Of a DNA stretch of 64,000 nucleotides, positions 3,303-37,625 are shown piece by piece. The translations under genes and the position numbers were made by a program. The stretch comes from a virus. How positions within the stretch are numbered: the stretch's first letter is position 1; each line of letters starts with the position of its first letter. Below the pieces are notes generated by a model that was not told the origin of the DNA, made no database searches, and saw nothing but the letters and a program-made list of their open reading frames with translations. The stretch lies in IMG/VR virus record IMGVR_UViG_3300033146_002768, positions 34,305 to 98,304 of that record; one strand, written 5' to 3'.

Positions 3303-5879
3303 GTGAATACAGATGAAGTTATTATAGGTCCTGATTATACAAGTATTATTGCTGGGAATGATGATGTACAAGGATTCCATAGAGACTTGAAAATCGGAGA
3401 AAAAACTGAAGTTCCATTTAATCCTTTATGTAGAAGAAGGACTATTAGAACAAGTGATTTTTATGCTAATTTGAAAAATAAAATTTCACCAACAACTGAG
3501 GTTTTACCTGACGGATGTAAGTTTTTTGATATTAGCACAACTGGTAGTAAAATGTTTGTTATTGAGCAACCGCCAAACATTAGAACCATTAGGGTTGATA
3601 TTGGGATAGAGCAGTTAATTGAAAAATTAAGATTAACTGGTAAATTAAAAGAATATGGATATGAGAATTATAAAAAAGATTTTAAAAGACATAAAGACGG
3701 ATATTATAATTTTCAACTTGCATTTCCATTTGTTGTTTTAATTATTGTATTAAATTCAAGAAATGAAATGTGCGAAATTCAACCATTCTTTAGAACTACA
3801 CCAGTTACAAGTGTATTAGATCATTTATATATAGCACCATTGTATAATGTTCCTACTGAACAAACGATGTGTATGGGGAGTGGTATTAGATCTTACAATA
3901 GTATTTCCGAAACGATTGATAACATTGTTGAACATTTCTGGATAAATGTCTATAACCAAGATTATACAAACAACTTGACTAAATATGGAAAAACTGAAGA
4001 ATACCGAGTTCATGATTATTTAACTTGGGCATACTTTACAAAACAAGATCCGATGTTTGTATTTGATGTCGACTGGATTCCATATCATTTAAAAATAGTT
4101 GATATTTTAAACAATATTAATACGAAGAGAGGTAGAACAAATTCATCTCATGATTCATATAATAGTATTTTTGGATCGGCATTTGAAGCTACATCGACAA
4201 GAAATAATACCAAAGCAATAGTTCATAATACAACATATTCAATGGCAATAAAACAGGGAGTCACAATAACTGTTGGTGATGAAATTTCATACAAAGATGA
4301 AAAGATGTATTTATATTCAATTTTAGCTGATAAAAATGGTTCATATGCAGGAGTTGAACTTGAAAATGAAAAGGGTGAAATTGAACATATAGAGTTTAAA
4401 ACTTTTGAGAAAAACTACAAAAATGCAATTAAAATTGTAAAACTCGATAAAGTTATTATAAACGGTAAGACGCTTAGCGAAGGGGATATTATTTCTTTTG
4501 ATGTTCTTGGAAACACAGTTTATAAAACAGTTCAATCAATCAGACAAGCTAAAGATGGTAGATTGGAAGCACTGATGAATAATGATCACTATCTAATTGA
4601 TAATTTAAAATTTGATATATTCGATTCATCAGCAATAAAAATAAATGGCTTACCTATTGATAAGAAAGGCACGTATCATATGCTTGCTATTCAAGACAGT
4701 AGCTGTCCTCTTTATCAAGTTTATGATTGTAAATTTCATTCACTTAGTGTTGGAAGTGGTAGTAGTATATCAATTAAATTTGAAGCAACAAATGGTAATA
4801 TGTATTACTTGAATCATAAAAATCATTTAGCTGGAACATCTGAATATGAGTTTATCAATAATGATTTAATTGAAATTCCTCCAGTTTTAATGTGGTTTGA
4901 TAAATTAATGACTAATAGAAAGGTAACTGAGTATAACGAACATTTTAAAATTATAAAGGGTCGTGGTATAAGTGTTGGTATTGGAATGAGAGTTAGAAGT
5001 TATTTTAATGGTGGTCAAGAGATATTAAAAACAATATTAATAGAAGACAATACTAGGTTACATATTCCAACTATTGGAACAGATATTGACTTTAGAGTTG
5101 GTGATCCAATTGTTTATGCTGGATGGAAAAATCCAGAAGATATGTTATTGATTTCTTCTATTACAAGATTTGAATATGATGAAAATCGGAATATGTTTTA
5201 TGTTTATAGTATGACTTTGAATAAAAAGAAAGAGTTTAAAATTCCTTTTATTAATTTTGGAAATAATAGAGTTAATGTTGGAATTATTAGGAAAGTTACA
5301 TCAAAATTTGGTACCTGGTCATCTGGTGATAAAATTATTGCTGAAACGCCTGGAGTAACTAACTTTCCTAAAAAGGATGTTAATACTATTATTGCTTTTA
5401 TTGATGATGGTAATGTTAAATATCCATTAGCACTTTGTTCTAACTTATGTACTTTATGGATGAATGATGATACCATGAGCAAGTTTAAAGTACTTAAGTT
5501 TAAATCAGCACCATGGAAAAAAGTTGAGAGTAATTTATTTAATATAGAAAAAATTAAATATCAACATGGTGATATGTTTAGATCTACTCAATATAATTTC
5601 TCATCTATTTATGTTGCTACAAAACGAAATGGATCAAGTTATGGAATGGATCTATCATATTGTAGTAATTATGGAACTATCGACAATGGAGGAGAAGCTA
5701 ATAAAAGCTATCTAGATCGTTCTTTTATAAGATATGGAATTTTAACACCTCGATATGCAACTACATCTTCTCAAGCTTCCAAGATTTCACAAGGATTCCC
5801 GAATATGTTAGGTGGATATTATTTTAACAAGTATGCAGGAACTTACTTTAGAAGTGATCAATTTAAGGAGGATTTTTAA
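3303..5879 (+). CDS. large hypothetical protein (858 aa), GTG start
   Basis: Long uninterrupted ORF. It ends 2 nt before the JAB gene start. No recognisable motifs. Confidence 0.6.
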   Translation: MNTDEVIIGPDYTSIIAGNDDVQGFHRDLKIGEKTEVPFNPLCRRRTIRTSDFYANLKNKISPTTEVLPDGCKFFDISTTGSKMFVIEQPPNIRTIRVDIGIEQLIEKLRLTGKLKEYGYENYKKDFKRHKDGYYNFQLAFPFVVLIIVLNSRNEMCEIQPFFRTTPVTSVLDHLYIAPLYNVPTEQTMCMGSGIRSYNSISETIDNIVEHFWINVYNQDYTNNLTKYGKTEEYRVHDYLTWAYFTKQDPMFVFDVDWIPYHLKIVDILNNINTKRGRTNSSHDSYNSIFGSAFEATSTRNNTKAIVHNTTYSMAIKQGVTITVGDEISYKDEKMYLYSILADKNGSYAGVELENEKGEIEHIEFKTFEKNYKNAIKIVKLDKVIINGKTLSEGDIISFDVLGNTVYKTVQSIRQAKDGRLEALMNNDHYLIDNLKFDIFDSSAIKINGLPIDKKGTYHMLAIQDSSCPLYQVYDCKFHSLSVGSGSSISIKFEATNGNMYYLNHKNHLAGTSEYEFINNDLIEIPPVLMWFDKLMTNRKVTEYNEHFKIIKGRGISVGIGMRVRSYFNGGQEILKTILIEDNTRLHIPTIGTDIDFRVGDPIVYAGWKNPEDMLLISSITRFEYDENRNMFYVYSMTLNKKKEFKIPFINFGNNRVNVGIIRKVTSKFGTWSSGDKIIAETPGVTNFPKKDVNTIIAFIDDGNVKYPLALCSNLCTLWMNDDTMSKFKVLKFKSAPWKKVESNLFNIEKIKYQHGDMFRSTQYNFSSIYVATKRNGSSYGMDLSYCSNYGTIDNGGEANKSYLDRSFIRYGILTPRYATTSSQASKISQGFPNMLGGYYFNKYAGTYFRSDQFKEDF

Positions 5880-5880
5880 T

Positions 5881-7005
5881 ATGTTTCCAATTTGGATGAA
5901 TGATGGAGAAACAGAAATGCCGACAGACGATATATTTTATATCGTAGCGAAAGATGGAATTTATTTGAAGAAGAGTATGGGACATTTTGATACTGTATCA
6001 AAAGTAGATGAAATCTCAATGCTCGGAGAATGTGAATCGTTTGCATTACTCCATGTATCAAAAATTACAACGAGACAATTTGCTCAGATCCTTACTTTAT
6101 TTAGGGAGGTTTATAAAAAATATAAAGCAGAATGTAATGTAATTTTACATTATAACATCAAAAGAAAAAGATATAGAATTGAAGTACCTCGACAGGACGT
6201 ATCAGGAGCAAGTGTTGATTATGCAAATGGTGAAGAATCTTATAAAAATTATATAAGAATCGGAACTATTCATAGTCATGCTAATATGACAGCATTTCAT
6301 TCAGGAACAGATCAGAGTGACGAAGAAGGTTGGGATGGATTACATATCACTCTTGGAAAGATGGATGAAGATTATTTTGAAATATCTTGTTCTGTTATGT
6401 CAAGTGGTGAAAGATTCATGGTTAATCCAGAAGATTACATTGAAGGAGTTGAGCTTATTGAATATGAAGTTCAGCGAAGTTATAAAGTTTATTCGTGGGA
6501 GAAAGGAAAGCAAATTGAGAAACCCCTTGAAAGAAAACTGGGTTATATCACTAATGCCCCTGAGAAAGATTTATGTCATCCAAAGAAATGGATGGACAAT
6601 GTTGATAAACATATACCAAAAGCGGTATCTCGTTATGGTGGTTACAATTATGGACAGTATGGAATGTATGGACATAATTATGTACCTGGTATGTATTCCA
6701 GTAGAAGATCAATAGAAAATTTCTATGATTATACAAATCCAAAAGGAGATGGTTTAACGGTTGGTCAAAATGCATTATTTTCTGATTTGGAAATCGGAGA
6801 CGATGAATGGAATGCTTGTATTCAATGTCCTTATAAAGAACATAAAGTTGGTGCATTAATTGAATCATATTTGAAACAGGCAACAGAAGATGAATTAGCA
6901 GAAATGGGGTTATTTTATCTTGAACTTGCTGATGAAACAGACAATTCTTTTGATGTTAATGAAAATGGTATAGACATAAACAAAGGCACTCAAGCTAAAA
7001 AATAG
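5881..7005 (+). CDS. JAB/MPN+ (JAMM) zinc metallopeptidase, candidate Ubl-processing or deconjugating enzyme
   Basis: JAMM motif E...HSHANMTAFHSGTDQSD (HxHx7Sx2D). Strong RBS AAGGAGG 9 nt upstream of the ATG at 5881. The ORF-track start at 5812 is rejected. Confidence 0.75.
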   Translation: MFPIWMNDGETEMPTDDIFYIVAKDGIYLKKSMGHFDTVSKVDEISMLGECESFALLHVSKITTRQFAQILTLFREVYKKYKAECNVILHYNIKRKRYRIEVPRQDVSGASVDYANGEESYKNYIRIGTIHSHANMTAFHSGTDQSDEEGWDGLHITLGKMDEDYFEISCSVMSSGERFMVNPEDYIEGVELIEYEVQRSYKVYSWEKGKQIEKPLERKLGYITNAPEKDLCHPKKWMDNVDKHIPKAVSRYGGYNYGQYGMYGHNYVPGMYSSRRSIENFYDYTNPKGDGLTVGQNALFSDLEIGDDEWNACIQCPYKEHKVGALIESYLKQATEDELAEMGLFYLELADETDNSFDVNENGIDINKGTQAKK

Positions 7006-7017
7006 GAGATTTAGAAT

Positions 7018-7698
7018 ATGAACATTGTAGTTATAGGATTGGGTGGAGTTGGATCTATACTTTGTGACAATTTAGCCAGATATTTAAATTACTCAGATGA
7101 CTTAAAAGCAACTGTTAATTTAATTGATGGTGATCACTTTGAAGCAAAGAATAGTATTAGACAAACATTTATTAGATTGGGTGACAAAGCTGCAGTCAAA
7201 AAGGCTGAATTAAGTCATAGATTTGATAACGTTAATTTTCTGGATTTCAATGAGTTTATCAATGAAGATAATGTAAGTGCATTGATTCCTGAAGATTCAA
7301 TTGTTTTTATATGTGTTGACAATCATATATCAAGAAAAGTTATTTCTGATCATTGTTCAACACTTCAAAATATTACTGTCGTATCTGGTGGAAATGAATA
7401 TACAGATGGTAATGTGCAACTACATAAACGAGAAGGAGGTAAGAATGTCACTGCGTCATTAACGGAGTATCATCCAGAGATTGAGTACCCCGAGGATCAA
7501 TCTCCAGAAGATATGAGTTGTGAAGAGTTATCACACTCTGAGCCACAGCTATTGTTCACGAATTTAACCGTTGCAACAATAATGTGTTGGGTGTTCTATG
7601 CAATTCATAAAGGTGAAGATGTAACAAAATGTGGCGAAATTTATTTTGACATAACGTCAATGGCTACATTAGCGAAAAAGAGAAATTCTAGAATTTAA
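7018..7698 (+). CDS. E1-like ThiF/MoeB-family adenylyltransferase (first copy)
   Basis: VVIGLGGVGS Rossmann GxGxxG. LIDGDHFEAKNSIRQ aligns with E1 D-x-D-x-V-E-x-SNLNRQ. FICVDNHISRKV aligns with DCTDNxxTR. Confidence 0.7.
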   Translation: MNIVVIGLGGVGSILCDNLARYLNYSDDLKATVNLIDGDHFEAKNSIRQTFIRLGDKAAVKKAELSHRFDNVNFLDFNEFINEDNVSALIPEDSIVFICVDNHISRKVISDHCSTLQNITVVSGGNEYTDGNVQLHKREGGKNVTASLTEYHPEIEYPEDQSPEDMSCEELSHSEPQLLFTNLTVATIMCWVFYAIHKGEDVTKCGEIYFDITSMATLAKKRNSRI

Positions 7699-7729: not shown

Positions 7730-8689
7730 ATGACTACCGAAACTATTGAAACTTTGAATACTAAAACAGTTGCACAGCTTAAAGACATCCTTAGAGCAAG
7801 AAAAATCGTTGGGATGTTCAAGAAACCCAAAGCAGTTATTATTAAAGCAATCGTTGATGCTGCTACTTCTGCATCAGTTGCATCTGCAAAACCTGCTATT
7901 AAATCTAAAGCTGCAGTACCTACAAAGATTACTGCTGCAAAATTTAATATGTCAAGTGTTATGACAAAACCCAATGCAAAACCTGGCGACAAAACTACAA
8001 CTACCATTCAGGTATCTTGTGGTGCTAACTCTGCAGATTTCCCTGTTACTGGAAAACCTGTTGGTGCTGTTCAGGAATTTCTTAAAGAAGTTCTTAATAT
8101 CGACAGACTCGCTGAGGGTCAGGTTGCTGGTAAACCTGTTGGTTCTGATTATATCTTGAAAGAAGGCGATGTACTTGAGTTCATCAAACCTGCTGGTCGT
8201 AAGGGTGCTGATGAAACTGCCACATCTCTTGATAAACTAACTGTTGTTGGACTTAAAGATATTCTAAGAGCCCGTAAAATTGTTGGATATTTTAAAGCTG
8301 GTAAAGCTGGAATCATTGCTGCTATCCTTGCTGATACTGCTGCAAAAGCTGATTTCCCTTCTACTGCACCTGCTGCTGTTAAAGCTAAAAATGCTGTACC
8401 TACAAAGATTACTGCAGCAAAATTTAACATGACAAGTGTTATGACAAAACCTAATGCAAAGGTTGGTGATAAAACCACAACTACCATTCAGGTATCTTGT
8501 GGTGCTAACTCTTCTGACTTCCCTGTTGTTGGTAAACCTGTTGGGGCAGTTCAGGAATTCCTTAAAGAAGTCTTGAATATTGATAGACTTGCTGAGGGTC
8601 AGGTTGCTGGTAAACCTGTAGGTTCTGATTATGTACTTGCAGAAGGTGATGTACTTGAGTTTATTAAACCTGCTGGTCGTAAAGGCTAG
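7730..8689 (+). CDS. Tandem-duplicated HeH (Rho_N/SAP-like) plus ThiS/MoaD-like ubiquitin-like beta-grasp polyprotein, 2 x 160 aa
   Basis: Each half has LKDILRARKIVG...K..IIKAI (Rho_N-like helix-extended-helix), an Ala/Lys/Pro linker, then TIQVSCGAN...VQEFLKEVLNI...LKEGDVLEFIKPAGRKG. Compare MoaD ...L.DGDEVAFFPPVTGG. Both halves end in ...AGRKG. Confidence 0.7.
   Translation: MTTETIETLNTKTVAQLKDILRARKIVGMFKKPKAVIIKAIVDAATSASVASAKPAIKSKAAVPTKITAAKFNMSSVMTKPNAKPGDKTTTTIQVSCGANSADFPVTGKPVGAVQEFLKEVLNIDRLAEGQVAGKPVGSDYILKEGDVLEFIKPAGRKGADETATSLDKLTVVGLKDILRARKIVGYFKAGKAGIIAAILADTAAKADFPSTAPAAVKAKNAVPTKITAAKFNMTSVMTKPNAKVGDKTTTTIQVSCGANSSDFPVVGKPVGAVQEFLKEVLNIDRLAEGQVAGKPVGSDYVLAEGDVLEFIKPAGRKG
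7730..8689. repeat. Tandem direct repeat, 2 x 480 bp. The 3' approximately 300 bp of each unit (7907-8206 and 8387-8686) are about 87% identical at the DNA level.
   Basis: Direct comparison of the 7921-8206 and 8401-8686 blocks. The periodicity is exactly 480 nt. Confidence 0.9.
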
Positions 8690-8706
8690 TATTTAAAGTT
8701 GAATAA

Positions 8707-8740
8707 ATTAAGGGGTGGGTTAATTCTCACCCCTTAATTA
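8707..8740 (+). promoter_or_regulatory. Perfect 12-bp inverted-repeat hairpin (AATTAAGGGGTG / CACCCCTTAATT, 10-nt loop) with no U-tract, placed between the Ubl gene and the next gene
   Basis: Read directly from the sequence. Followed by AAAAGGAG and the ATG at 8752. Confidence 0.6.
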
Positions 8741-9234: not shown

Positions 9235-9283
9235 TTTATGAAATTGTATCATATATAATATGAAACAAATTGGAGTGAATGAA

Positions 9284-34262: not shown

Positions 34263-35531
34263 ATGGCGACTGAACCAGACATCCTTAGACCTTCAAGAAG
34301 TTATGAGATTAATTTAAGGATAAAGGGAGAAAATTATTCTAACGATATAACAAGGGTTAGACTTTCATCATCATTAGCGACTGGGTATCAAATAGTTTCA
34401 TTAACAATTAATATAACACCTCAATCAATTTTACTAAACAAATTATATGGACAAGATTCTATTGAACTTGTTATAAAAAGATTGGATGAAAGTGAAGTTG
34501 TTTCAGAAACAATGGTATTCGATTTAATGATATTAAATTCAGAATTTGAGATTCCTGTGTCGGATTTAATAACAACAGATCAACAAATGGATAGAACAAG
34601 TTTTGAATTAGTAACTGTAACAAGAACACCTTTTGAAATTATGACAACCATGGTGAGTGCTGTGTTTGGTCCAACTCCAACAAAAACTGTTTGGACAGCT
34701 CCAAAAACTATTAAAGAAATGATTGAAACTATAATAGATGAACAAATAACAGCACCATTACAACTTAAATATGATACTGTCAATGAAAATCTTGACCAAA
34801 TAAGACAAAGTTGTATTCCTCCTACTACATTATATCAAGCAATTAAATACTTAGATAGAAATTATGGTTTATATAACGGAGTCCCAGCAGTATTTTGTCA
34901 ATATGATAATACATTACAAATAATGAATTTATCTTCAAGAATTAAAAAAGGTTATACTATATTTGTTGAACATTTGAATAATCAAACTAAACAAGAAGAT
35001 ATTGATAAAGCAACTCAAGATAAAAAATATTTTTATACATATGATAATTTATATACTAATTATGTAGGCAATTCAAAATTTGGAGTAATAGGTCAAACAT
35101 TAAAACATGTAGTATTACCTTCTGATAAATTGTCTCATGTAATAGTTCAAAACTTACAAGATGTATGTGCATCTTATGGATTAATTTCAGATACTAAAGA
35201 TAAAAAACCTCATGTTAATACATCAGTAACAAATAGAATTAAATATTACATTGATAACAATGGTTATGATATATCAGAAGTATTCGCTAATTCAAAAATA
35301 GCTAAACAAATTTCTGATATTTCAAGATTAAGTTTTAGTATTGAAAGAAATTTGCCTATTGAGGATTTAATAAAAATTGGAGTTTGTGTTAAAATAAAAA
35401 CATTAACTCAAGAGCATATTGATATAAGTGGAAAGTATATTTTGTTTTCTAGTGATTTAGTTTGGAATAAACAAGGTGATTGGCAAACTGTTGCTAAATT
35501 AGAATTAATTAGAACTAATAAAACTGTATAA
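34263..35531 (+). CDS. hypothetical protein (422 aa), possibly structural
   Basis: AGAGGAGA RBS. Located just upstream of the terminase region. Confidence 0.5.
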   Translation: MATEPDILRPSRSYEINLRIKGENYSNDITRVRLSSSLATGYQIVSLTINITPQSILLNKLYGQDSIELVIKRLDESEVVSETMVFDLMILNSEFEIPVSDLITTDQQMDRTSFELVTVTRTPFEIMTTMVSAVFGPTPTKTVWTAPKTIKEMIETIIDEQITAPLQLKYDTVNENLDQIRQSCIPPTTLYQAIKYLDRNYGLYNGVPAVFCQYDNTLQIMNLSSRIKKGYTIFVEHLNNQTKQEDIDKATQDKKYFYTYDNLYTNYVGNSKFGVIGQTLKHVVLPSDKLSHVIVQNLQDVCASYGLISDTKDKKPHVNTSVTNRIKYYIDNNGYDISEVFANSKIAKQISDISRLSFSIERNLPIEDLIKIGVCVKIKTLTQEHIDISGKYILFSSDLVWNKQGDWQTVAKLELIRTNKTV

Positions 35532-35987: not shown

Positions 35988-37625
35988 ATGAATGCAATTA
36001 TGAATAAACAACAAAAGGTACAACAATCAGCTCAACGTTATGTACAAGAGTGGATGAAATGTAAAAATTCATTTGATTATTTTTGTTCTAAATATATATT
36101 AATAGAAATGCCTGGTGGAGATATACCATTAAATCCATATAGACCACAATCAGAACTTATTAAAGCTATAAATAAAAAACATTATGTATTAGTATTAAAA
36201 TCAAGACAGATCGGTATATCAACTATTATTCAAGCTTATTCTGCTTGGTTGGCAACATTCTTTGATAATGTTGTTATAGGGATTGTTTCAAAAGATGGTA
36301 AGGAAGCAACCGACTTTGCAAGATTCATTAGAGGAATGATAGAGAAGTTACCTAAATGGATGGGTGCAATATTTGATAAAAAGACTGAGCAATCATTTAT
36401 TTTAACTAATGGTGCAAAAGTATATGTTTCACCTGTTAATCCTAATGCTCCAGAGAAAACCCTTCGTGGTAAGGCAATTACATTCTTAGTAATAGATGAG
36501 GCAGCTTTTATTAAATTTCTTGATACTGCTTGGACGTCAATGATTCCTGCATTATCTACTAATCAGATGCATGCAAGAAAAGCTAATGTTCCATATGGTA
36601 CTGTAGTATTATCAACACCAAATAAAACAGTTGGTCCTGGTAAATGGTTCTATGAAAAATATCAAAGAGCAGTTGGTGGTGATGATATATTTACAGAATT
36701 TACAATACATTGGAGAGATGTAAAAGAATTATCTGATGATCCAGGTTGGTATGATACTCAATGTCAACTATTTGAAAATGATCCAAATAAAATTCAACAG
36801 GAGTTAGAACTTAAATTCCTTGCTACAACTGGGTCTTTTTATAATGATCAAGTAACTCAAATATTACAAGAGCTTGATACTGATCCAATAGAAAGAATTA
36901 AATTATTTAATGGCGAATTTTGGAGATTTAAACATGCTATTCCAAACACTCATTATATAATTGGAGTTGATACTGCACCTGAACATGGTGAGGATAAGTC
37001 AGCCATAACAATATGGGACTATCAACATTTAGAACAAGTGGCTGAATATCAAGGAAAATGTAGAGTTGTTGATTTTGTTAAAGTTGTTAAGGTTGCTGCT
37101 AGTCAATATCCTGGGACTATAGTAGTAGAGTCAAATTCATATGGTAATCATGTAGTTGAAGAAATGATGCGAAGTGAATTTTCTCATATGATGTATAAAG
37201 AATCAAGAGGTAATACAAAGGTTCCTGGTCTTCAAACAACTGCTAAAACAAGACCATTAATCATTGATGCTTTATATTCATTAGTAACAGAGTTTCCAGA
37301 AATTGTTAAATCAAAAAGATTAGTCCTTGAATTAATAGGACTTATTAGTAAACCGAGTGGAAGAGTAGAAGCTGATATAGGATGTCATGATGATATTGCA
37401 TTATCAGCGGGATTAGCTTTCTATGTTCATAAATATGATCCTGTATTAATGATGCAAAATAATACAGTAGCAAGCAATTTATTCACAGATGTTATGGCAT
37501 TAAATGATTATGGACCAGAAGTTATTAATGATACTTCTATTATGAGGCATGTCAAAGATAATTTAAGTAAACAAAAAGGTGTAATAAATACAATGGATTT
37601 CTTTTTTGGAGCTGATAGAGGATAA
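35988..37625 (+). CDS. terL: terminase large subunit
   Basis: Walker A-like VLVLKSRQIGISTII. Walker B FLVIDEAAF. C-terminal RNase-H-like nuclease region (IGVDTAPEHGEDKSAITIWD...CHDDIALS). Confidence 0.85.
   Translation: MNAIMNKQQKVQQSAQRYVQEWMKCKNSFDYFCSKYILIEMPGGDIPLNPYRPQSELIKAINKKHYVLVLKSRQIGISTIIQAYSAWLATFFDNVVIGIVSKDGKEATDFARFIRGMIEKLPKWMGAIFDKKTEQSFILTNGAKVYVSPVNPNAPEKTLRGKAITFLVIDEAAFIKFLDTAWTSMIPALSTNQMHARKANVPYGTVVLSTPNKTVGPGKWFYEKYQRAVGGDDIFTEFTIHWRDVKELSDDPGWYDTQCQLFENDPNKIQQELELKFLATTGSFYNDQVTQILQELDTDPIERIKLFNGEFWRFKHAIPNTHYIIGVDTAPEHGEDKSAITIWDYQHLEQVAEYQGKCRVVDFVKVVKVAASQYPGTIVVESNSYGNHVVEEMMRSEFSHMMYKESRGNTKVPGLQTTAKTRPLIIDALYSLVTEFPEIVKSKRLVLELIGLISKPSGRVEADIGCHDDIALSAGLAFYVHKYDPVLMMQNNTVASNLFTDVMALNDYGPEVINDTSIMRHVKDNLSKQKGVINTMDFFFGADRG

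Follow-up and report, generated by a model that had tools for sequence, protein, structure and literature searches.

A probable polyubiquitin-style precursor of two ubiquitin-like modifiers with SAP/HeH heads, encoded by a phage beside E2-like, JAB and E1 genes

The IMG/VR virus record IMGVR_UViG_3300033146_002768 was analysed over 64,000 nucleotides (positions 34,305 to 98,304 of the record, hereafter the window), where a gene at 7730..8689 on the plus strand encodes the same arrangement twice, a helix-extended-helix (HeH/SAP) head, a Lys/Ala/Pro linker and a ubiquitin-like (Ubl) domain. The question raised by this locus is whether the product (319 aa, 33.2 kDa, pI 9.7) works as one protein or is a precursor from which two modifiers are cut. 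Unit 1 (7730..8206, plus strand; aa 1-159, 16.7 kDa), as delimited by alignment with the other unit and with homologues, has its HeH part at about 7730-7864 and its Ubl core at 7988-8206, and ends in ...EFIKPAGRKG. Unit 2 (8207..8686, plus strand; aa 160-319, 16.5 kDa) has a fast-diverged HeH part at about 8207-8344 and a Ubl core at 8468-8686, and ends in the same ...EFIKPAGRKG followed by the stop codon.

The reading frame is single, uninterrupted and open across the unit junction. The initial annotation had described the first Ubl as ending in ...KPAGRKG with the second repeat (ADETATS...) directly after it, and this is what the sequence reads: the units are laid head to tail as in polyubiquitin, with no spacer and with no in-frame start codon for unit 2, and the stop codon follows Gly319 immediately, with no cap residues. 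The cleavage junction is predicted between Gly159 and Ala160 (GGT/GCT, 8204..8209, plus strand) from the position of the C-terminal G.KG that is conserved throughout the family. We favour, with a probability of about 60%, the reading that the gene is a polyubiquitin-style precursor of two paralogous Ubl modifiers, which would be cleaved by the co-encoded JAB peptidase and then conjugated by E1a and the E2-like protein; like the other functional assignments below, it was derived from comparison of sequences and modelled structures.

The two units were compared by codon-aware pairwise alignment. They do not form the exact 2 x 480-nt repeat that had been described, since the first unit has 477 nt and the second, not counting the stop codon, 480 nt, and small indels fall in the N-terminal part and the linker. 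Tandem Repeats Finder reported no array in the gene (7730-8689) because the 5' halves are too diverged. The Ubl-coding 300 nt had been given as about 87% identical, and the last 100 codons indeed showed 86.7% nucleotide and 93% protein identity, far above chance, with mostly synonymous differences (dN 0.059, dS 0.52, dN/dS about 0.1). Over the first 58 codons the identity was 59% in nucleotides and 55% in protein. About 43 of the differences there were nonsynonymous and about 28 synonymous (dN 0.44), which contradicts the earlier statement that the HeH parts diverged mostly synonymously. Gene conversion or selection on the Ubl had been offered for this pattern; selection stands and gene conversion is not required, as a three-taxon dN analysis, in which the dS estimates were too noisy to decide against conversion, explained the pattern by purifying selection on the Ubl together with fast, one-sided evolution of the unit 2 HeH. 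Taken alone, the retained internal AGRKG of the window protein is hardly informative, since the duplication is recent when judged by protein divergence (dN about 0.05).

These differences bear on the possibility that the gene is an artefact of assembly or was fused by accident. A minor deletion or an error in sequencing would then have joined adjacent paralogues and left an internal copy that has no precursor role. The fused gene is one observation on a single metagenomic contig (P0001, with one member on one 207-kb contig), the other 57 phage loci are single-unit, and an out-of-frame ATG 3 nt past the junction, preceded by AAGGG, could be a relic start site. However, 23% of the aligned nucleotides are different between the copies, which speaks against a collapsed or duplicated assembly, and the dN/dS of about 0.1 indicates that both Ubl copies have been under selection since the duplication. 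With the frame open over the junction and unit 2 lacking a start of its own, we consider an accident of this kind extremely improbable.

A search for single- and multi-copy relatives found all 57 IMG/VR phage homologues to be single-unit, so that this duplication is specific to the lineage of the window, and found multi-unit arrays in the wider family. The tandem form occurs in 1 of about 65 phage loci. Among GenBank phages there was no DNA match and no protein match, PHROGs gave nothing informative, and no description of a phage HeH-Ubl module was found in the literature searched, the coverage of which was incomplete.

Homologues without a terminal Gly had been named in advance as evidence against processing, and the single-unit homologues all have ...G.KG, in about a quarter of cases with a short cap after it (16 of the 57 phage HeH-Ubls). 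Such caps have 1-9 residues, often a lone Cys, and occur in about 35 of the 150 best family clusters; examples among relatives are VVRIG, VQRINIIV, ESK, MLIE and C. At least 12 relatives are arrays of 2-4 units with no spacer, the units being 35-82% identical to each other. The tail EF.K..G.KG is kept on the internal units in all 12 arrays, the last unit carries one or more extra cap residues, often a single Cys, and a fourfold and a threefold array adjoin the same E2/JAB/E1 genes. One match, P0092 (1123 aa, 10 matched stretches), was discarded as a false positive, being a CxxC-repeat protein. Taken together, the caps and the tails kept inside diverged arrays suggest that cutting after KG is needed across the family, and the earlier proposal that cleavage after RKG would be necessary gains support from this comparison.

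The same relatives have to be weighed for another reading, an uncleaved di-Ubl modifier comparable to ISG15, FAT10 or the Ubl2/Ubl3 proteins of Bil and Bub systems, in which all 319 aa stay together with two heads and two beta-grasp domains and only Gly319 is activated. Relatives with 2-3 HeH heads per Ubl occur (P0004, P0007 and P0099). Internal beta-grasp domains that lack the tail are present in P0076, P0091 and P0071 (unit 3), so the Ubl family also includes uncleaved multi-domain forms. In Bil and Bub systems a Ubl built of 2-3 beta-grasp domains functions as a single entity (PMC11601603; PMC10557695), and an internal tail is uninformative in so young a duplicate as that of the window. 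On the other hand, the duplication took the whole unit, with its N-terminus and its complete tail, and the 12 older arrays keep internal tails at 35-82% unit identity, which is sensible only if these tails become exposed. A JAB that is catalytically intact, as judged by its motif, is moreover always co-encoded, and an intact di-Ubl is in our view unlikely.

The processing reading draws further on the neighbouring genes, which stand in the order E2L-JAB-E1a-Ubl with the Ubl last, an order kept in four close relatives. The JAB peptidase had been noted as adjacent, and both it and a ThiF-type E1 do adjoin the Ubl gene. The E2-like protein (E2L; 3303..5879, plus strand; 858 aa) has an N-terminal domain of the Prok-E2_D type at about aa 60-260, with Asn182 and the candidate catalytic Cys190, and a C-terminal region of about 600 aa that may serve in target recognition. 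Its motif PLYNvPxxQTxCLG is similar to the UBC HPN...C motif, and the Cys is conserved in 49 and the Asn in all of 50 sequences. Pfam Prok-E2_D matched E2L of the window weakly (21.7 bits, cut-off 25), as it did three of four orthologues; the standalone E2 P0177, which a profile of the E2 domain recovers at E 2.7e-33, scores above that cut-off (30.4 bits) and has a neighbour that passes Prok-JAB, so the membership of the window E2L in Prok-E2_D is only transitive.

The JAMM/JAB metallopeptidase (5881..7005, plus strand; 374 aa; Glu84, His131, His133, Ser141, Asp144) is the candidate for both processing and deconjugation. Its start was placed at ATG 5881 according to the orthologues, not at GTG 5812, and its match to Prok-JAB is weak, with the L010 orthologue above the cut-off (34.2 bits). 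The motif E...HxHx7SxxD is invariant in 54 of 54 orthologues, always within the same operon. E1a (7018..7698, plus strand; 226 aa; Pfam ThiF E 3.2e-17) is a single-domain ThiF/MoeB-type adenylating enzyme with GxGxxG from Gly7, Arg48, Asp101 and the loop Cys168. Its adenylation residues (GxGxxG, Arg finger, Lys, Mg-binding Asp) are conserved in 52-56 of 56 sequences and the Cys of its MSCEEL loop in 54 of them. The E2 domain profile, the JAB and E1a gave nothing significant against PDB sequences.

All 57 IMG/VR phage loci have the E2-JAB-E1-Ubl operon wherever the flank exists, on contigs of up to 277 kb. Metagenome-assembled GTDB genomes were scanned with the JAB alignment, the Ubl core having no stretch conserved enough, and of the 45 loci with this JAB, 43 had the E1, 41 the E2 and 39 the Ubl; the E1 that the cassettes of binned genomes encode shares 42% identity with E1a. 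With the precursor lying in an operon of E1-, E2- and JAB-like genes, cutting apart before attachment is most likely required. That the co-encoded JAB is the protease cutting after KG is likely, as had been suggested, given the complete motif in every orthologue, the shared operon and the analogy with BilC and BubCD, JAB enzymes that have been shown experimentally to cut Ubl precursors after a conserved Gly (PMC10557695, PMC11601596).

A perfect 14-bp GC-rich hairpin (8706..8739, plus strand) lies 17 nt past the stop codon (-22.5 kcal/mol, z = -4.5), and six other loci have hairpins of different sequence at the same place (z -4.0 to -6.8). The hairpin probably marks the end of the E2-JAB-E1-Ubl transcription unit, either as a terminator or by stabilising the 3' end; a terminator scan did not pick it up because it has no U-tract. 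Beyond it lies a second ThiF-like protein, E1b (9260..10159, plus strand; 299 aa; Pfam ThiF E 3.9e-12), which almost all of the 57 phage loci contain and which matched only PaaA and UBA5, weakly, among PDB sequences. E1b is without the Arg finger, the Lys, the loop Cys and the Asn found in the CVDN motif of E1a; it is predicted to be unable to adenylate and may pair with E1a as a heterodimer. It ends in ...LLPETGAA, and a tail of the form [LI][LI]x[ED]TG[AG]A was seen in about 55 of 60 sequences. A fused Ubl of this family in its C-terminal region was considered, and hhalign gave no support for it (probability 1-3%). The gene always just downstream of E1b, p160b (10168..10650, plus strand; 160 aa), was detected in 40 of the 57 phage loci and had no match in Pfam or the PDB. 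It has an invariant His62-Pro-Asn-Ala and Cys85 in an alignment of four orthologues, and its assignment as a second E2-like protein is speculative.

The HeH motif that had been assigned to the head was recovered, with a SAP match at aa 9-25 above the Pfam SAP cut-off and modelled N-terminal helices that resemble the SAP domains of DEK, FAN1, PIAS1 and Ku70. The fold of the head suggests DNA or RNA binding, as do the linker, which is basic, and a pI of 9.7. The Ubl has a ThiS-like beta-grasp fold with about 15% sequence identity to ubiquitin. The window protein scored above the Pfam cut-offs for TGS (PF02824, 32.4 bits, cut-off 22.2) and ThiS (PF02597, 23.7 bits, cut-off 22.5), mostly over the C-terminal strand. 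Four relatives also matched ThiS, P0160 (24.1 bits) and P0166 (25.6 bits) over most of the profile, and P0010 and P0013 with 40.8 and 43.2 bits; the Ubl profile had no significant match among PDB sequences. The C-terminal G.KG is invariant among close homologues and conserved across the 150 best clusters, the tail is flexible in the model (pLDDT about 48), and the penultimate residue is a nearly invariant Lys instead of the usual Gly. Adenylation of this C-terminus would be expected from its adjacency to an intact ThiF-type E1.

A ThiS-like fold beside such an E1 could also belong to a sulfur carrier, after the manner of ThiS/ThiF, CysO/Mec+, QbsE/QbsD or TtuB. E1a would then thiocarboxylate the Ubl, and the HeH head would bring the sulfur donor to nucleic acid, for instance for thio-modification of phage DNA or RNA. 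The sulfur carriers ThiS, CysO, QbsE and TtuB end in GG, whereas the tail here is ...KG. The operon also contains, in phages and in binned genomes, an E2-like protein with a near-invariant Cys (49/50), and neither a rhodanese nor a cysteine desulfurase nor a sulfur-acceptor enzyme was present among the operon neighbours scanned. As arrays and large N-terminal fusions are likewise foreign to known sulfur carriers, this function is very unlikely.

Under the precursor reading, each modifier would consist of an N-terminal SAP/HeH head, a basic disordered linker, a ThiS-like beta-grasp domain and the tail ...EF.K.AG.KG. The co-transcribed JAMM/JAB peptidase would cut after Gly159 and release two products of about 16.6 kDa that both end in a free Gly, and in relatives the same enzyme would remove caps or separate array units. 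E1a would adenylate the exposed Gly and probably hold it as a thioester on Cys168, as its conserved residues suggest, and the Ubl would then be passed to Cys190 of the E2-like protein, whose large C-terminal region would pick the targets. Target lysines would thereby gain a tag with a putative DNA- or RNA-binding head, and the JAB could also reverse the modification. With both Ubls under strong purifying selection and the second HeH evolving fast, one mRNA may supply equal amounts of two modifiers with different heads. The predicted unit masses differ (16,698 and 16,517 Da), which makes the tandem gene a natural substrate for a JAB assay, and the Ubl family as a whole offers the simple assay of JAB-dependent monomer release.

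Where bacterial Ubl conjugation has been characterised, in type II CBASS and in Bil, it serves antiphage defence, and the same is presumed for Bub (PMC10557695, PMC11601596, PMC11601603). Here such Ubl-conjugation machinery is a conserved module of phages themselves, on at least 57 IMG/VR contigs, with a modifier that carries a DNA-binding-type head, which points to a phage-directed protein-tagging system with possible roles in host takeover, counter-defence or genome organisation. A wider proposal is put forward only tentatively, and we hold it to be doubtful in its full extent. It states that a clade of large tailed phages carries its own complete cascade (an E1 that is active and an E1-like partner that is not, an E2 joined to a large region for putative substrate recognition, a JAMM peptidase and a SAP/HeH modifier), that conjugation attaches a DNA/RNA-binding head to host or phage proteins, that polyubiquitin-like and capped precursors evolved repeatedly and independently of eukaryotes, and that the window gene yields two modifiers with different heads. 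If this were true, tagged proteins would perhaps be tethered to the genome beside the phage's own RNA polymerase genes.

Among known systems, the Bil operon (BilA Ubl, BilB E2, BilC JAB, BilD E1; types I and II) shares the combination of Ubl, E2, JAB and E1. Bil belongs to bacterial defence islands, whereas the system described here is phage-encoded; the Bil E1 is one IAD-AAD-CYS polypeptide, in place of a 226-aa single adenylation domain (E1a) and a separate, inactive-looking E1b. Further differences are the fusion of the window E2 domain to a region of about 600 aa and the SAP/HeH head of the Ubl. The tandem beta-grasp domains of Bil have not been described as cleavable units (PMC11601603). 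The PADLOC Bil models gave only a marginal BilD match on E1a (E 0.0095) and none for the Ubl, E2 or JAB, proteins of the binned genomes included. Membership in Bil or Bub was not accepted, the PADLOC matches being generic E1 matches.

The likeness to Bub (6E/DUF6527) lies in a precursor that is cut after Gly by the JAB of its own operon, as would be the case here. BubCD cuts the larger precursor BubAB endoproteolytically after a conserved Gly, which sets the Ubl free (PMC11601596). The Ubls of Bub contain 1-3 beta-grasp domains, their N-terminal domains vary, and Bub consists of Ubl-E2 and JAB-E1 fusions with oxyester (serine) chemistry and a DUF6527 serine protease. In the system studied here, by contrast, the genes are separate and the E2 Cys (49/50) and E1a loop Cys (54/56) are conserved, and DUF6527 had no match among the operon neighbours.

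Operon type 6d of Iyer, Burroughs and Aravind (2006) has separate Ubl, JAB, E1-like and E2-like genes, as here, and a His on the C-terminal side of the catalytic Cys is absolutely conserved in its E2s (PMC1779556). At the single column checked beyond the Cys, a His was present in only 2 of 50 sequences (VEHFW in the window), and a six-sequence alignment of the E2 domain had no invariant His; nor did a seven-sequence JAB alignment have the invariant Arg/Trp pair of the JAB-N type. With CysO/Mec+ and QbsE/QbsD the system shares a ThiS-like beta-grasp protein beside a ThiF-type E1 and a JAB peptidase, and in ThiS/MoaD-type carriers JAB trimming exposes the C-terminus (PMC1779556). The E2-like enzyme, KG tail, HeH fusions and arrays set it apart from them. 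Of the two analogies first drawn, that with polyubiquitin processing is supported; that with QbsD/Mec+ fits less well than Bil or Bub because of the conserved E2-like protein.

Polyubiquitin genes (UBB, UBC, UBI4) have the same head-to-tail units, each closing with the reactive Gly and joined with no spacer, and yield monomers only through a peptidase. The polyubiquitin unit is the bare 76-aa fold, against a 160-aa HeH-linker-Ubl unit here; the two units here are unlike each other, with heads that are 55% identical, the tail ends in KG where polyubiquitin has GG, and the protease, in place of the DUBs that mature polyubiquitin, would be a JAMM enzyme of the same operon. As the fold is ThiS-like with such low identity to ubiquitin, the polyubiquitin-style layout is of independent origin. 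The family adds prokaryotic and viral polyubiquitin-style precursor genes and capped Ubls, a convergence with eukaryotic ubiquitin genes, and the system is a phage-encoded variant of known Ubl-conjugation systems.

The HeH-Ubl gene (7730-8689, plus strand) is an uninterrupted ORF of 319 aa with a good upstream ribosome-binding site (AGGAGAATTAAACATG), encoding two units of helix-extended-helix (HeH) head, linker and ubiquitin-like (Ubl) domain. Unit 1 (aa 1-159) ends ...GDVLEFIKPAGRKG; unit 2 (aa 160-319) begins ADETATSLDKL... and closes on the same eleven residues, immediately before the stop codon. The internal ...AGRKG with the next unit immediately after it, as described in the initial annotation, was borne out by the ORF and by codon-aware alignment of the units. 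Over the last 100 codons (Ubl part) nucleotide identity was 86.7%, matching the ~87% first described, and protein identity 93%, with a dN of 0.059 and a dS of 0.52; over the first 58 codons (HeH and linker) the values were 59%, 55%, 0.44 and ~1.3. Two details were corrected, after which the original observation is essentially correct. The repeat is not an exact 2 x 480 nt, as the units measure 477 and 480 nt with small indels, and in the HeH halves most of the divergence is amino-acid replacement, not synonymous change (~43 nonsynonymous vs ~28 synonymous differences in the first 58 codons). The 7730-8689 repeat was not reported by Tandem Repeats Finder.

No in-frame start codon for unit 2 exists at the unit junction, so unit 2 could be made only within the fusion. 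The identical 319-aa protein was recorded once, on a 207-kb JGI contig, so evidence for the fused state comes from one assembly. That the gene is an accidental fusion or artefact is hardly credible, given that the units differ at 23% of nucleotides and that selection acts on both Ubl copies.

Pfam SAP matched the start of each unit (26.8 bits), and TGS (32.4 bits) and ThiS (23.7 bits) matched at the C-terminal strand, all above cut-off; Ub-Mut7C and the C-terminal domain of YchF, also beta-grasp families, matched more weakly. An initial AlphaFold model of a whole unit, with only nine input sequences, gave HeH helices at pLDDT 80-91, a disordered linker and a poorly predicted Ubl part. Structural matches were usable for the head only, which resembles the SAP domains of DEK, FAN1, PIAS1 and Ku70. 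The SAP/HeH head, the basic linker and a pI of 9.7 suggest that the tag may bind DNA or RNA.

Single- and multi-copy versions were compared in related phages, as the initial annotation had proposed. A single unit was present in all 57 IMG/VR viral loci collected with the HeH-Ubl profile, in seven close homologues and in four related contigs, which makes the tandem form specific to the lineage of the window; other arrays came from the wider Ubl family. On this distribution, the tandem gene arose once, in this lineage alone. Branch lengths in dN were calculated for a three-taxon set of the two units and L013, the closest single-copy orthologue locus. In the Ubl part the branches were 0.03 (unit 1), 0.02 (unit 2) and 0.08 (L013), the units being mutual nearest relatives; in the HeH part they were 0.04, 0.36 and 0.23, unit 1 having barely changed and unit 2 greatly. 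The short Ubl branches, against the long HeH branch, point to purifying selection on the Ubl domains (dN/dS ~0.1), and the internal HeH head of unit 2 may be either relaxed or adapting. Of the two causes first suggested for the similarity of the Ubl parts, selection was upheld; gene conversion is not needed to account for the pattern, though it may have contributed, given the noisy dS values.

A word-indexed search returned only seven homologues, all single-unit (177-222 aa), two of them with two HeH heads before one Ubl. All end in ...KPAG[RSQ]KG with a free Gly, contrary to the possibility, raised initially against processing, that homologues lack it. Searched exhaustively as a profile, the Ubl part gave 939 clusters at E <= 1e-3 (178 at E <= 1e-10), and architecture and tails were surveyed in the best 150 of the 939. 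Among these 150, many were HeH(1-3)-linker-Ubl proteins and others bare Ubls of 68-70 aa; most terminated exactly at G.KG, ~35 were capped by 1-9 extra residues (very often one Cys), two had Lys/Ala-rich extensions of 67-75 residues and ~15 were head-to-tail arrays. Twelve arrays, of 2-4 units each, had inter-unit identities of only 35-82%, yet every internal unit carried a complete EF.K..G.KG tail, whose variable residues were often identical across the units of one protein. Retention of the tail in arrays so diverged makes little sense if internal tails never become free C-termini, which supports cleavage after KG as a probable general need of the family. Polyubiquitin genes follow the same logic, including the cap after the last unit.

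Uncleaved multi-domain forms exist in the family as well, since in a minority of relatives (protein clusters P0076 and P0091, and the third domain of P0071) the tail is missing from internal beta-grasp domains. The main alternative, which we consider unlikely, is that the 319-aa protein stays intact and works as a modifier with two domains, as do ISG15 and the multi-domain Ubls of Bil and Bub; the Ubl2 and Ubl3 proteins of the latter systems were described as intact multi-domain units forming monomers, dimers or filaments (PMC11601603). We favour, with a probability of roughly 0.6, a precursor cut by the JAMM peptidase (JAB) into HeH-Ubl modifiers for conjugation by the ThiF-type E1 (E1a) and the E2-like protein (E2L). 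JAB would cut after Gly159, yielding two HeH-Ubl proteins of 16.7 and 16.5 kDa; E1a would adenylate the C-terminal Gly of the Ubl, which would pass to Cys190 of E2L, and the ~600-residue C-terminal region of E2L would select targets. The scheme is proposed by analogy with BilC, which removes the residues that follow a conserved Gly in BilA, and with BubCD, which separates BubA from BubB by cutting their fusion behind a conserved Gly (PMC10557695, PMC11601596). The interpretation first offered, of which this processing is a part, is a prediction with comparative and structural support.

Other tails and settings were also seen. In L056 and L057 the Ubls end in ...SGRKGDRKGC, where the tail itself is duplicated over a short stretch. 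The HeH-Ubls P0049 and P0135 carry Lys/Ala/Pro-rich, histone-H1-like extensions of 67-75 residues after KG. P0160, a bare 68-aa Ubl on phage-like contigs (L006:8001-8207; L007:4815-5021), adjoins Rad52-like and DNA polymerase III alpha genes, with no E1, E2 or JAB gene within the sequence fetched (8 kb in L006); it may be an orphan modifier, or its enzymes may be encoded elsewhere.

HeH-Ubl is the last of four operon genes, after E2L (858 aa, 3303-5879), JAB and E1a (226 aa, 7018-7698). The N-terminal domain of E2L gave a weak Prok-E2_D match, as did three of four orthologues. Its motif PLYNvPxxQTxCLG resembles the UBC HPN...C motif, and Asn182 and Cys190 are conserved in 50/50 and 49/50 sequences. 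A standalone 222-aa relative (P0177), flanked by Prok-JAB, ThiF and a 68-aa Ubl, scores above the Prok-E2_D cut-off and is found by the E2 domain profile at E 2.7e-33. The E2 assignment of E2L is based on these four observations. A sulfur-carrier role for the Ubl is highly unlikely, since this E2-like protein is conserved, the tail is KG and no sulfur-transfer partners were found among the neighbours scanned. The full JAMM motif of JAB (Glu84, His131, His133, Ser141, Asp144) was present in 54/54 distinct sequences, and the GxGxxG, Arg finger, Lys, Asp-Asn pair and loop Cys168 of E1a were kept in 52-56 of 56. The mechanical JAB call began at a GTG at 5812, adding 5812-5880 and overlapping the E2L gene; all orthologues begin MFP..., which puts the start at the ATG at 5881, two bases beyond the end of E2L. 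In the phage protein the E2 domain is N-terminal, followed by ~600 aa of no recognised fold. In the ~730-aa proteins of L005:4032-6269 and L008:4101-6281, on contigs binned as Candidatus Falkowbacteria and a bacterium, it lies in the C-terminal half, and the N-terminal half has several hydrophobic membrane-span-like segments, so in cells this cassette may act at the membrane.

The order E2L-JAB-E1a-Ubl recurs in four close relatives and, wherever flank was available, in all 57 viral loci (contigs up to 277 kb). Genome bins assigned to CPR bacteria, Chloroflexi, Lentisphaerae, Planctomycetota and other groups also include contigs with the operon. In 45 GTDB loci with this JAB family, E1 was present in 43, an E2-like protein in 41 and a Ubl in 39, ordered E2-JAB-E1-Ubl or Ubl-E2-JAB-E1; the Ubls were mostly bare, often with three-residue caps (e.g. 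...GVKG-LAA). Arrays of four and three Ubls adjoin E2, JAB and E1 genes of the same kind. In Chloroflexi MAGs (L082, L091, L092, L097, L102-L111) and Lentisphaerae (L083-L085, L093, L112) the Ubls were almost always capped by three or four residues after the conserved Gly (...GVKG-LAA, -QQA, -INA; ...GEKG-VAA, -CLAA), so JAB trimming would be obligatory there.

A perfect 14-bp hairpin (8706-8739, plus strand; z = -4.5) follows the Ubl stop codon; it runs into the ribosome-binding site of the next gene and hence lacks a U-tract. GC-rich hairpins of 10-19 bp were found at this position in every locus tested, the window and six others (L001:10569-10604, L003, L004, L013, L016, L039), with unrelated sequences. 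The hairpin probably acts as a terminator or attenuator, or stabilises the 3' end of the mRNA, and its conserved position suggests a single transcription unit for the four genes. Downstream lies a second ThiF-like gene, E1b (9260-10159, plus strand), with orthologues in L001, L003, L004 and most of L013-L069; it accompanies phage modules and is absent from nearly all binned-genome cassettes. In E1b GxGxxG is kept but the Arg finger, Lys, Asn and loop Cys are missing, so that it looks like the inactive partner in a heterodimeric E1. Its last residues, [LI][LI]x[ED]TG[AG]A in ~55/60 sequences (...IELLPETGAA in the window), could pass for a small tail with Gly or, superficially, for an LPxTG motif; hhalign of the C-terminal region of E1b against the Ubl family gave no similarity. 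Always just downstream is p160b (160 aa, 10168-10650, plus strand), with His62-Pro-Asn-Ala and Cys85 invariant in four orthologues. The HPN...Cys pattern, ~150-aa size and E1-like neighbour suggest a possible second E2-like enzyme, but the HPN-Cys spacing (~20 residues) is longer than in UBC enzymes; Pfam and PDB sequence searches gave no match.

Undivided RNA polymerase beta' (906 aa, 10987-13707) and beta (1028 aa, 13732-16818) homologues, both on the plus strand, lie directly downstream of the module, as in L001 and L003. Other genes are a radical SAM enzyme (413-1561), a LEM-3-like GIY-YIG nuclease (1539-2522), a WYL_2 protein (2620-2928) that relatives also have immediately upstream of the module, a FolE2 GTP cyclohydrolase, possibly for 7-deazaguanine chemistry (17520-18365), an RtcB RNA ligase (23864-24997) and a T4-type large terminase (35988-37625). 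The source is a tailed phage of ~207 kb and 30% G+C.

More important than the tandem gene is the module it belongs to, a widespread, conserved, phage-borne and predicted ubiquitination-like system with a DNA-binding-type modifier; the gene also led to a Ubl family with many capped and polyubiquitin-style precursors. Neither a phage-encoded HeH-Ubl module nor cleavable Ubl arrays were found described in the literature searched, whose coverage was incomplete and gives no proof of absence, and a 224-genome jumbo-phage review does not mention such a phage module. For the 6e (Bub) systems, tandem Ub-like domains had been called "reminiscent of poly-ubiquitin" in 2006 (PMC1779556), and no report was found of these being cut between domains. 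Bil/Bub membership was rejected, the sole PADLOC Bil match being a marginal BilD on E1a. By Pfam the window operon is related to the Prok-E2_D and Prok-JAB families, whose descriptions match operon type 6d (Iyer et al. 2006, PMC1779556); type 6d has a conserved His after the E2 Cys, whereas the window family has His in 2/50 in the column checked. The invariant Arg/Trp pair of the JAB-N type was not seen in the window JAB family alignment. Bil is likewise a Ubl-E1-E2-JAB conjugation operon in kind, from which the window operon differs in its single-domain E1, and from Bub it differs in its conserved catalytic cysteines.
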